Of a stretch of 62,601 nucleotides of DNA, positions 16,520 through 19,755 are shown piece after piece. Source of the stretch: Alphaproteobacteria bacterium (GTDB lineage Bacteria; Pseudomonadota; Alphaproteobacteria; JAPULJ01); NCBI GenBank assembly GCA_037387885.1, contig JARRKQ010000061.1:11547-74147 (forward strand), given 5' to 3'. The notes beneath the pieces are model-generated. The model was not told the origin of the DNA. It searched no databases and saw only the letters and a list, made by a program, of their open reading frames with translations. Each line of letters begins with the position of its first letter. The stretch's first letter is position 1. The position numbers and the translations under genes are program-made.

Positions 16520-17626
16520 CTATTTCGCCGGCAGCGGCGGCGGGCTGTCGCTCAGCGTGCGCAGATAGGCGATCAGATCGGCGCGGTCTTTTTCCTTCGC
16601 CGTCTTCAGCGTCATCCTGGTGCCTTTCACGAAAGCCCTGGGGTTGGCGAGGAACGTGAACAGCTCGGCATAGGTCCACTTGCCGCCCTTCGCCTTCATC
16701 GCGCTGGAGAAGCGATAGCCCTCGACCGCCCCCCGGTCGCGGAGCACGACCCCGTAGAGGTTGGGGCCGACCTTGTGGCTCGCCCCCTTGGCGAAGGAAT
16801 GACACGCCCGGCATTTCCGTTTGGCCAAGGTCTCGCCGCGCTTGGCGTCGGCCGTCGCCAGCAGCGGGCCAATGGCGGCCATTTGGGCCGGGGCCTTTTC
16901 TTTCGGTTTTTCCGCAGGCTTTTCTGCGGGTTTTTCCGCTGCTTTTTCTGCCGGCTTCTCCGCGGCTTTGGCTTCAGGCTTCTTCGCTTCAGGCTTCTTC
17001 TCTGCGGGCTTCTGCTCCGGCGCCTTCGCCTCGGGCTTCTTCTCCGGCGCCTTCGCCTCGGGCTTCTTCTCCGCCTCCTTCGGCGCGGGCGGCAGCGGCA
17101 CGGGGCTGTCGGCGAGCGTCCGCAGGTACAGGAGGACGTTCGCGCGGTCCTCGGGCTTGGGCATCTTGAACGTCATCTTGGTGCCCTTCACCGCGGCGAT
17201 CGGATTGCGCAGGAATTCGTAGATGTTCTCGTACGTCCACTTGCCGCCCGCGGATTTCATGCCCGCCGAATAGTTGAAGCCTTCATGCCCGCCGCGCTCG
17301 CGACCCACGACGCCGTAGAGATTGGGGCCGAGCTTGTTGGGGCCGCCCTTTTCCAGCGTGTGGCATTGGAGGCAACGTCGAACGAGCTTCTTGCCCGCCT
17401 CGAGATCGCCGGATGCCAGGAGCTTGGCGACGGGCGGATCCTTTGCCGGCTCCGCGGCTTCGCCTGTTCCGCCGCCATGGCCGGCATCGGCCGTATGCCC
17501 AGTCCCATGTCCGGCGCCGCGGCCGCCGGGCGGCACCAAGATGTCGCCGGCAAAGCTGACGACCATCGCAACCAGGGCCGTGAGCAAAACCGCGCCCGAA
17601 ATCTTCGTGAGTAGCATTGTGTTCAT
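16520..17626 (-). CDS. Membrane-anchored cytochrome c (CycM-like) with two tandem class I heme domains
   Basis: N-terminal anchor ([13 protein letters not shown]); CLQCH...GTKM and CRACH...GTRM domains joined by an E/K/P/A-rich linker. Confidence 0.88.
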
Positions 17627-17811
17627 GAACTGTTTTTCGCTGGCACCGAGCCCGGACGCATTCAAAGTCCGGCTCGCCGAGGCGGATTAGCGAAAGTTTA
17701 TAGGGTGCTGGCCGTGCCCCGTCACCCCCCGGATTGACCAACGCATGGGGTCCCATCGCGTGGCAATATGTCGCAGAGTATCGGCCCGCCAAACGAGGCA
17801 CGAGAGCACGC

Positions 17812-18594
17812 ATGGTCAAGTCTCAGAAAGGCTCGCCGAACGGCGGGGCCGGGCATCGTCCGATCATCATCATTCCGGCGCGGATGGCGGCGACGCGCCT
17901 GCCCGGCAAGCCGCTCGCGGATATCGCGGGCAAGCCGATGATCGTGCATGTGCTCGAACGTGCGAGCGAGGCGGCGCTGGGTCCGGTCGTGGTCGCTTGC
18001 GGCGATGCCGAGATCGCGGCGGCGGTGAACGCGGCGGGTGGCCGCGCCGTGATGACCGATCCCGATCTTCCCTCCGGCTCCGACCGCGTCCTCGCGGCCG
18101 TTACGAGCGTCGATCCCGATGGCGCGCACAACGTCGTCATCAACCTGCAGGGCGATCTGCCCGCCATCGCGCCCGCCGCGATTGCCGCGGTGCTCGATCC
18201 GCTTGGCGACCCTGCCGTCGACATCGCGACCCTGGTCGCACCGATCGGCGATCCCGCCGAGCGCGACGATCCCAACGTGGTCAAGGCGGCGCTCGACTTC
18301 GGCGGCCCGGATCAAAGGCAAGGGCGTACGGCCCGCGCGCTTTACTACTCGCGCGCCGCCGTGCCGTCGGGCGAAGGGCCGCTCTACCATCACATCGGCA
18401 TCTATGCCTTCCGGCGGGCGGCGCTCAAGCGCTTCGTCGCCCTGCCGCCCTCGGGACTGGAGAAACGCGAGCGGCTGGAACAGCTCCGCGCGCTCGAAGC
18501 CGGCATGCGCATCGACGCGGCGCTGATCGACGACGTGCCCCTGGGCGTCGACACCGAAGCCGACCTCGCCAAGGCGCGCTCGCTCCTCGCTTGA
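17812..18594 (+). CDS. kdsB: 3-deoxy-manno-octulosonate cytidylyltransferase
   Basis: [54 protein letters not shown]. Confidence 0.95.
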
Positions 18595-18621
18595 TTGCAA
18601 ATATTATTGGAAAATTTGGTT

Positions 18622-18642
18622 TTTATAGGCTAAGCCTATAAA
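18622..18642. promoter_or_regulatory. Perfect palindromic operator candidate TTTATAGGC-TAA-GCCTATAAA
   Basis: 9-bp perfect arms, 3-bp spacer, in an AT-rich island ending 21 bp before the XRE-PheA start; the right arm contains a TATAAA -10-like hexamer. Confidence 0.7.
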
Positions 18643-18663
18643 TTCTGAACGGCGGACACACGA

Positions 18664-19755
18664 ATGCTGCGTGAGATCGGCGAGCGCATCAAGCGCGCCC
18701 GCAAGGGCGCGTCCCTGTCGCAGGCGGCGCTGGCCGAGGCGGTCGGCGTCGCCCAGGCGACCGTCAGCGCCTGGGAAAGCGGCAGCCACGGGCCCAGCCT
18801 CGAGCATTTCGAGACGATCGCCCAGGCCTGCGGCCGCAGCCCGGGCTGGCTCGCCTTCGGCGACATCGATGCCGCAACGACGCGGCGAGAGGAGAGATCG
18901 GCCATGAAACGCGACGCACGCACCATCGCCTATCAAGGCGTGCCCGGGGCTTACTCGCACCTTGCCTGCCGCATTGCCTTTCCCGATCTGGAGCCGGTGG
19001 CGTGCCGGACCTTCGAGGACGCCTTCGCCGCAGTCGAGGAAGGACGCGCCGATCTCGGCATGATCCCGATCGAGAACTCGCTCGGCGGCCGGGTCGCCGA
19101 CATCCACCATCTGCTGCCCGATTCCTCGCTCTATATCGTCGACGAGCATTTCCAGCCGGTGCAACACCACCTGCTCGCCCTGCCGGGCGCCGGGCTCGAT
19201 ACCCTGAAGACCGTGTACAGCCATGAGCAGGCGCTGGCGCAGTGCCGCGGCCTGATCCGCGAATTGAAGCTCGATGCGGTGATCCGCGCCGACACGGCGG
19301 GCGCCGCCGCCGAGGTTGCCGAGCAGGACGACCCGAGCGTTGCCGCCATCGCCTCGGAGCTGGCCGGCGAGATCTACGGCCTGACCTCGCTGCGCACCCG
19401 CATCGAAGACCGGCTAGGCAACACCACGCGGATGGTCGTCATGTCGCGCACCCGCGAGGAGCCCGACCCCAAGGAGGGCGATGCGATCACCAGCCTCGTC
19501 TTCCAGGTGAGGAGCGTGCCGGCGGCGCTCTACAAGGCGCTCGGCGGCTTCGCCACCAACGGCGTCAACATCACCCGCCTGGAAAGCTATATCAGCGAGG
19601 CGATGTCCGGCATCGCGCAGTTCTACATCGACATCGAAGGCCACCCCTCCGACAAGTCGGTCGACCACGCCTTCAACGAGCTGCACTTTTATTCCACCAA
19701 GATGAAGATCCTCGGCGTCTACAAGGCGCACCCGTTCCGCCGCGAAGGCCAGTAA
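18664..19755 (+). CDS. pheA: XRE/Cro HTH domain fused to prephenate dehydratase (PDT + ACT)
   Basis: aa 1-67 IGERIKRARKGASLSQAALAEAVGVAQATVSAWESG...PGWLAFG (HTH_3-like). From aa 81: IAYQGVPGAYS, PIENSLGG, SHEQALAQC, and ACT ALYKALGGFATNGVN. Single frame, no stop. Confidence 0.88.
   Translation: MLREIGERIKRARKGASLSQAALAEAVGVAQATVSAWESGSHGPSLEHFETIAQACGRSPGWLAFGDIDAATTRREERSAMKRDARTIAYQGVPGAYSHLACRIAFPDLEPVACRTFEDAFAAVEEGRADLGMIPIENSLGGRVADIHHLLPDSSLYIVDEHFQPVQHHLLALPGAGLDTLKTVYSHEQALAQCRGLIRELKLDAVIRADTAGAAAEVAEQDDPSVAAIASELAGEIYGLTSLRTRIEDRLGNTTRMVVMSRTREEPDPKEGDAITSLVFQVRSVPAALYKALGGFATNGVNITRLESYISEAMSGIAQFYIDIEGHPSDKSVDHAFNELHFYSTKMKILGVYKAHPFRREGQ

Follow-up and report, generated by a model that had tools for sequence, protein, structure and literature searches.

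A putative autoregulatory operator upstream of a helix-turn-helix-prephenate dehydratase fusion gene in Alphaproteobacteria

The window analyzed here is a 62,601-nt stretch of an alphaproteobacterial genome assembly (contig JARRKQ010000061.1), and the element of interest is a palindrome in a short A+T-rich gap between kdsB and a pheA gene encoding a fusion protein. In this protein, henceforth referred to as HTH-PheA, an XRE-type helix-turn-helix (HTH) domain precedes a prephenate dehydratase (PDT) with its ACT domain. Comparison of related loci indicates that the palindrome is very likely the operator of the fused HTH. The parts of the gap and its upstream gene, in window coordinates, are as follows.

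17734-18594, plus strand: kdsB (CMP-KDO synthetase; Pfam CTP_transf_3, 8e-46), with its stop codon TGA at 18592-18594
18595-18663: A+T-rich intergenic island of 69 nt between the kdsB TGA and the ATG at 18664
18622-18642: perfect 10+1+10 palindrome, TTTATAGGCT-A-AGCCTATAAA, in which T18631 pairs with A18633
18624-18629: left half-site TATAGG, conserved core (ATAGG invariant in 11 distinct fusion loci)
18630-18634: variable 5-bp spacer, CTAAG in the window
18635-18640: right half-site CCTATA, conserved core, 11 bp center to center from the left half-site
18637-18642, plus strand: -10-like hexamer TATAAA overlapping the right half-site, a candidate promoter element
18651-18657, plus strand: GGCGGAC, ending 6 nt from the ATG and conserved in the window lineage as far as L045; a possible weak Shine-Dalgarno sequence or 5' untranslated region element

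The G+C content of the gap is 35% (27% over 18595-18650), as compared with 65% for the assembly and approximately 70% for the flanks. A preliminary description of this DNA had given the coordinates and sequence of the gap and palindrome correctly, including the TATAAA within the right arm. The 21-bp palindrome, which it gave as two arms around a central TAA, is more complete than reported, with a single unpaired central A, but the conserved core proved narrower, comprising the 17 bp of TATAGG-N5-CCTATA (18624-18640). This element is two-fold symmetric, with half-sites about one helical turn apart, and is located directly upstream of the fusion gene, 24 nt before the ATG (22-40 nt for the site as a whole). 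A palindrome with arms of at least 10 and a spacer of at most 4 was obtained with p = 4.4e-4 in 200,000 shuffles of the gap. The 4.28-Mb assembly contains about 55 perfect palindromes (arms of at least 10, spacer of at most 1), most of them G+C-rich and resembling repetitive extragenic palindromes (REP-like); the gap palindrome is among just four A+T-rich members of this set. Since the palindrome was picked out by scanning the whole window, a local p of ~4e-4 cannot decide the matter, and the case must rest on comparison.

The comparison was made with 11 distinct sequences of the window's lineage, whose HTH is 62-99% identical to that of the window. To gather them, the HTH and not the palindrome served as the query, in protein look-ups and in one scan of metagenomes. 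All 11 share the cytochrome c / kdsB / HTH-pheA arrangement, and the site was kept in every close fusion relative. With the sequences anchored on the site, variation was observed in one of the six columns of the left hexamer TATAGG and in two of the six columns of the right hexamer CCTATA, where the changes are confined to the two most distant relatives. Variable columns made up all five in the spacer (CTAAG, CTAGG, CTAAT, TTACG, TATAC, TATAA, ATAAA), 15 of 20 in the left flank and 20 of 20 in the right flank. Contigs of four salt-marsh metagenomes contained variants in the flanks and spacer (A>G at 18633) and zero in the hexamers. Because the hexamers are kept and the spacer and nearly all flanking bases vary, the functional core is, as judged from these alignments, the 17-bp TATAGG-N5-CCTATA.

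The window lineage has its most divergent member in L043, where the region 2955-2990 contains three elements resembling half-sites at 5-bp spacing, CCTAT(A)-N5-(C)ATAGG-N5-CCAAT(A); the first two constitute a second perfect palindrome, TTTATCCTAT-AATC-ATAGGATAAA, containing a perfect TATAAT. The array may be bound by two dimers sharing the central half-site. In another relative, L051, 10 nt of the start region are duplicated in tandem at 1485-1510 (ATGCTGCGTG ATGTTGCGTG), which results in an out-of-frame ATG and a 6-codon mini open reading frame (ORF) directly before the true fusion start.

More distant HTH-PDT fusions (P0009, P0017, P0032 and P0111) were identified by exhaustive protein search. 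In a search of 401 alphaproteobacterial genomes, fusions were found in about 10, distributed over five families (f1, f72, f95, f127 and f173), and the fusion therefore extends beyond the genus of the window. G248 was rejected as a fusion after the genome search, its open frame merely overlapping kdsB. The predicted recognition helices and the palindromes upstream of the corresponding genes are listed below.

Helix QATVS(A/S)WE, window lineage: TATAGG-N5-CCTATA
Helix QPTVTRWE, L060, L129 and G097: a perfect TATAAT with a TATACG-N5-CGTAT site on either side, the second of these sites covering the ATG
Helix QPTVNRWE, G074, from a different family: perfect TATACG-CATTA-CGTATA
Helix QSTVARWE, G175: TTTATGC-N7-GCATAAA directly after the kdsB stop codon
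Helix QSTVNRWE, P0009 / L130: TATGC-N7-GCATA adjoining a TTGACT hexamer
Helix HSTINRWE, P0017: TTGCATA/TATGCAA after TTGACA
Helix HATISRWE, P0032: TTTATT-N5-AATAAA

The outer TAT...ATA is common to the fusion sites, and the inner bases (AGG, ACG, GCA) track the helix. The half-sites TATACG and TATGC were each found in two families, and all six spacers differ among the QPTVTRWE loci. As judged by these pairings, the half-site changes with the recognition helix across the fusion lineages. In the P22 c2 repressor, the residues aligned with the variable helix positions are Val33 and Gln37, both of which contact bases in the 2R1J complex (PMC5175364).

A further locus outside the fusions, L125 (746-1100, 1825-1841), contains a phage-like divergent XRE pair whose minus-strand gene encodes a fusion-type helix, VAQATVSSWESG. 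Three TATAGG-like sites occur at this locus: TATAGGTCAAACCGATT at 5 nt and TATCGGTCAAACCTGTA at 39 nt before the start of the minus-strand XRE gene, and TATAGGTTATGCCTATG at a distance of 800 nt. L125 is a possible relative of the HTH donor and is recorded as a lead, not as support.

Occurrence of the site elsewhere was then considered. The preliminary description had proposed the pattern TATAGGC-N3-GCCTATA for defining a regulon; its inner C/G is not conserved, and scans with this pattern and with the refined core found no extra sites above control in five genomes (G000, G001, G002, G074 and G097). The window's own genome (G000, 71% complete) has one exact site, at the fusion gene. Its near-matches with up to two mismatches are no commoner than those of scrambled palindromes of the same composition, and its single 1-mismatch match (C256:1395) falls inside a 591-aa ORF. 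The sole exact site in G001 and in G002 is likewise at the fusion gene, and the lineage-specific motif of G074 and of the 100%-complete G097 was found only in front of the fusion gene. By these counts there is no regulon, and the palindrome is a candidate private operator.

Other palindromes of G000 were also noted. A REP-like repeat family, GGGCGGGTTT[C/G]AAACCCGCCC, is present in at least 15 perfect copies (e.g. C12:31709, C70:7297, C84:21191 and C99:7624), some of them extended to (ACTATT)TGTAGGGGCGGGTTT-S-AAACCCGCCCCTACA(AATAGT). The three other A+T-rich perfect palindromes, at C1:13471, C5:39935 and C65:13057, are the 36-bp AACACAATATTGTTGGAC/GTCCAACAATATTGTGTT, ATAGTTATCCATATGGATAACTAT and ATTGACAATATATTGTCAAT; these may be further operators.

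The gene downstream of the palindrome has the following features.

18664-19755, plus strand: HTH-PDT-ACT fusion gene, 363 aa (XRE domain aa 1-67, linker aa 68-81, PDT and ACT aa 84-361)
18754-18780, plus strand: codons of the predicted recognition helix, aa 31-39 QATVSAWES, aligning with helix 3 of P22 c2
18889-18906, plus strand: internal GAGGAG and in-frame ATG at the canonical PheA start

Pfam identified HTH_3 (PF01381) at aa 9-63 (2.4e-14), PDT at aa 88-263 (1.8e-54) and a weak match to ACT, and the NCBIfam prephenate dehydratase equivalog NF008866 scored 418.7 bits against a cut-off of 359. The AlphaFold2 model has a mean predicted local distance difference test score (pLDDT) of 84, with values of 80-93 for the five-helix HTH and below 50 for the linker (68-81), which is predicted to be disordered and flexible. 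The closest solved relative of the HTH is the N-terminal domain of the P22 c2 repressor (1.5e-8), and its best NCBIfam repressor models are DicA and RstR. Residues 31-39 are helical in the model, and QATVSAWES is invariant in all relatives with TATAGG sites. The PDT-ACT part superposes on the Phe-bound Brucella PDT 6VH5, its best PDB fold match (template modeling score 0.9, 53% identity). The second-best structural match, at 51% identity, is GqqA (7AM0), which is homologous to PDT but has been reported to be a quorum-quenching acylase; annotation to the PDT family is no guarantee of a single activity.

Catalytic and ACT motifs are kept in all 12 aligned fusions, and the fusion is the single PDT match in G000 and in the 100%-complete G097. 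The enzyme part thus looks intact and is predicted to be still catalytic. The internal GAGGAG-ATG is kept in the window lineage (L005/L006), the L060 lineage and G243; no Met is present at the canonical PheA start in the P0009, P0017, P0032, G175 and G074 fusions. An HTH-less isoform may be produced from the internal ATG where it is present, and this would not be a general feature of the family. Since the PDT boundary lacks a Met in several of the fusion lineages, it is the full-length protein that must be the working enzyme. One PDT motif (19420-19430, aa 253-257) is NTTRM in the fusion of the window and in those of its four nearest relatives, and NxTRF in all other fusions; the NTTRM variant retains the catalytic Thr-Arg, with the following Phe replaced by Met.

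The origin of the arrangement was addressed with a synteny sample of 33 alphaproteobacterial loci carrying an ordinary, non-fusion pheA. In approximately 24 of the 33, kdsB is directly upstream of pheA, usually with a divergent cytochrome c gene, and the kdsB-pheA gaps measure roughly 0-90 nt. No HTH was found between kdsB and pheA in any of these loci, and the palindrome is absent from the kdsB-pheA gaps of relatives without the HTH. Given this adjacency, the HTH part together with the A+T-rich gap (~310 bp) is a lineage-specific insertion. The preliminary description had envisaged an operator-HTH cassette inserted between kdsB and pheA that uncouples the two genes; the insertion agrees with the synteny of the 33 loci, and the uncoupling lacks sequence support, as no terminator follows kdsB.

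The window neighbors of the fusion gene are housekeeping genes, namely kdsB, cytochrome c and a MetE-like gene. The cytochrome c gene, divergent from kdsB (16520-17665, minus strand), encodes two heme-binding domains, and single-domain cytochrome c homologues of other Alphaproteobacteria match both halves by tblastn (residues ~78-191 and 265-381).

With respect to transcription signals, the -10-like hexamer is the sole conserved promoter-like feature, reading TATAAA in the window and TATAAT (TATATT in two loci) in most relatives. No -35 hexamer is conserved 16-18 nt from it in the window lineage. Hand-picked -35/-10 pairs, such as TTGATT-N17-TTATAT in G074, fail the scan criteria and are not claimed. 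The terminator scan of the window and four relatives gave nothing usable, with no terminator or U-tract after kdsB; Rfam returned no match of the gap at E of at most 1, and no leader peptide, terminator or known RNA element was found in the gap. Given that kdsB is not followed by a terminator and that the gap matches no Rfam family, read-through from kdsB remains likely.

Because the site is kept in close relatives, its half-site tracks the HTH and it is unique in each genome scanned, the fused HTH is the likely binder. The preliminary description had read the palindrome as an autoregulatory site, and these same three lines of sequence comparison favor that reading. As a whole, the locus is likely best explained by a PheA, predicted to be still catalytic, whose P22-c2-like HTH binds the palindrome as an autoregulatory operator private to this gene, with negative autoregulation as the outcome. 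With somewhat lower confidence, HTH-PheA is considered to act probably as a repressor at the palindrome. A response of the system to phenylalanine is put forward only tentatively.

We infer physical binding, repression in preference to activation, a promoter with its transcription start, and tuning by L-Phe or prephenate, and combine them in the following mechanism. The PDT-ACT body would oligomerize, as stand-alone PDTs do, and so replace the C-terminal dimerization domain of a phage repressor. The oligomer would present two HTHs, each tethered by a linker of ~14 residues, to TATAGG and CCTATA, whose centers are 11 bp apart. Since the site lies near the start codon and covers the only conserved -10-like hexamer, its occupancy would most likely block polymerase: the bound protein would occlude the promoter or stop transcription reading through from kdsB, and occupancy would thereby result in negative autoregulation of pheA. 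A tetramer would offer two HTH pairs, in keeping with the three half-sites seen in L043 and with the pair of neighboring operators in the L060 lineage. DNA binding might be tuned by Phe at the ACT domain, with prephenate as an alternative ligand; this last step is purely conjectural.

Several observations weigh against this interpretation. No canonical sigma-70 promoter was identified by consensus scan of the window and four relatives, and the proposed overlap of operator and promoter hinges on the -10-like hexamer, a candidate element. In two metatranscriptomes the locus was represented only by two 151-nt contigs inside pheA, derived from a relative, which are uninformative on the transcription start. 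Only degenerate sites were found in three fusion genomes (G243, G397 and G282), and the 14-bp palindrome of P0017 has a different geometry. Moreover, 24 of 25 stand-alone XRE loci with QATVS[AS]WE have no TATAGG-like site, the exception being L125, showing that this helix motif alone does not predict TATAGG. Of nine lineage representatives, just three (the window, L060 and G175) reached significance by palindrome length alone, with a combined p of ~0.05 once the window was left out. Since length is weak as a stand-alone test, the case rests on conservation of the hexamers, their sharing between families and their covariation with the helix. The fusion lineages may also share ancestry, in which case identical half-sites in two families reflect conservation and not independent invention; such sharing still amounts to long-term conservation amid unalignable flanks.

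The alternative that survives best keeps the same binder and reverses the sign. HTH-PheA would activate its own promoter, for example by compensating for the missing -35 element, or would both repress and activate, as lambda CI does at PRM. The lack of a -35 hexamer conserved at 16-18 nt from TATAAA/TATAAT would suit activation, as would the palindrome of G175, which lies directly after the kdsB stop codon with a TTGATT hexamer downstream of it, where activator sites are more usual. In most lineages, however, the site overlaps or flanks the -10-like hexamer or adjoins a -35-like TTGAC(A/T) (L130, L133 and L044/L055), and the second site of the L060 lineage covers the start codon; these are typical repressor positions. 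The end-product logic of a biosynthetic gene also favors repression, and activation is considered unlikely.

Binding by something other than the fused HTH would imply another trans-encoded regulator or a nucleoid protein, or else an A+T-rich promoter or UP element, with the fused HTH acting elsewhere or not at all. Binding by the fused HTH is itself a prediction, and selection on a promoter alone would conserve the -10-like hexamer in the right arm. Yet the most conserved element is the left hexamer (ATAGG invariant), which has no promoter role, and the half-site changes with the fused HTH across lineages. A trans regulator normally has further targets, whereas the motif occurs nowhere else in the five genomes, and the kdsB-pheA gaps of relatives devoid of the HTH are also devoid of the palindrome. 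A different binder is therefore rated improbable.

The palindrome could also act as a nucleic-acid hairpin, either as a terminator or processing site after kdsB or as a 5' stem that stabilizes or occludes the pheA mRNA. The RNA does fold into a 9-bp stem with a 3-nt loop (-17.4 kcal/mol for the gap, z = -2.5), but it has no U-tract, terminator call or Rfam match. Among the window-lineage sequences, no stem covariation beyond shuffles and no compensatory changes were observed; the two inner stem pairs are broken in 3 of 10 sequences, and the outer bases are conserved in sequence and not in pairing. Conservation of sequence rather than pairing is the signature of a protein-binding site and not of a hairpin. 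The L060-lineage sites, with 5-bp half-sites, variable 5-bp spacers and two copies, would also make poor hairpins, and a hairpin function is judged very improbable.

A functionless chance palindrome in low-complexity A+T-rich DNA is hardly credible: such spacers often yield short palindromes and 6 of 9 lineage representatives are individually non-significant, but the local p value, the hexamers conserved amid saturated flanks in 11 sequences and the recurrence of the same hexamers in different families sharing a helix type form a conservation pattern that, on sequence grounds, already contradicts it.

If the palindrome is the operator of HTH-PheA, an unusual combination of domains becomes a regulatory circuit that can be tested, with 17 bp as its defined target. 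Differences in a single helix go together with three natural classes of specificity (TATAGG, TATACG and TATGC), and natural one-site and two-site versions exist. The system bears on the transfer of a signal from a Phe-bound ACT domain to a tethered HTH, on the evolution of enzymes into regulators and on the design of a compact Phe-responsive switch. Annotation is affected as well, in that current gene names give prephenate dehydratase and leave the HTH unmentioned. Full-text literature searches yielded no paper on a fusion of an HTH with prephenate dehydratase.

Among known systems, the pheA gene of Enterobacteria is controlled by attenuation at the pheL leader and by the TyrR regulon. Expression of enterobacterial pheA is adjusted to the phenylalanine supply, as is proposed for the fusion. 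In the latter, control would be exerted by the protein's own fused HTH and not by a ribosome-mediated attenuator or a separate regulator.

The DNA-binding part resembles phage repressors. The N-terminal domains of P22 c2 and 434-type repressors (PDB 1ADR, 2R1J and 3JXB) have the same five-helix fold as the fusion HTH. The P22 c2 dimer recognizes a pair of A+T-rich half-sites separated by one helical turn; the center is specified only loosely, and the consensus is ATTTAAGATATCTTAAAT (PMC5175364). In contrast to P22 c2 and 434, the fusion has no C-terminal LexA/S24-type dimerization and cleavage domain, its oligomerizing body being a metabolic enzyme, and it is associated with a single chromosomal operator (two in one lineage), no tripartite OR/OL switch and no cro partner. 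A phage lambdoid immunity repressor was accordingly rejected as an identity for the gene, given its PDT-ACT and not S24 C-terminus, the housekeeping neighbors, the absence of a cro partner and the single operator.

A closer architectural parallel is BzdR of Azoarcus sp. CIB, which consists of an XRE HTH, a linker and a shikimate-kinase-like domain and represses its cognate promoter via palindromic sites (PMC3602430). In both proteins a linker joins an N-terminal XRE HTH to a C-terminal domain derived from an enzyme, which in BzdR binds a pathway metabolite. The kinase-like domain of BzdR, a homologue of shikimate kinase, has lost catalysis, whereas the PDT of the fusion appears intact and is the cell's only PDT. 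Membership of the BzdR subfamily was rejected: the BzdR-type NCBIfam model NF006015 matched just the HTH, with 18.8 bits where the cut-off is 204, and the C-terminus is PDT and ACT. The authors of the BzdR work built a hypothetical bifunctional 'missing link' artificially, as the Q1 chimera (PMC3602430), and by analogy the fusion resembles the intermediate so constructed. A further proposal, which we hold to be possible but short of probable, is that HTH-PheA is fully bifunctional. It would make phenylpyruvate, and a relaxed/tense (R/T) quaternary change triggered by Phe at the ACT domain would switch two HTHs (four in a tetramer) on and off the operator; the protein would thus represent the intermediate postulated for BzdR, spread over at least five families with a helix-readable operator code. 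If true, a single molecule would combine allosteric feedback inhibition with transcriptional feedback, and the stage at which an enzyme has acquired a DNA-binding domain, as postulated for BzdR-like regulators, would be found in a present-day organism.

Few proteins are known to be both a working metabolic enzyme and a repressor of their own gene, the cases being BirA, NadR, PutA and RbkR. Each of these comprises an active metabolic enzyme fused to a DNA-binding domain, recognizes palindromic operators at its own gene or at genes of its pathway and uses an enzyme ligand as the signal. None of the four, to our knowledge, acts in amino-acid biosynthesis, has an ACT-domain enzyme or uses an XRE domain. 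Archaeal RbkR has lineage-specific operator motifs, and some lineages have two adjacent sites (PMC5397151). The fusion is like these proteins in combining a predicted active enzyme with a DNA-binding domain and in having a palindromic site at its own gene. It differs from them in having no regulon beyond that gene and in using an XRE domain, where BirA, NadR, PutA and RbkR use winged HTH or ribbon-helix-helix domains joined to other enzymes in other pathways.

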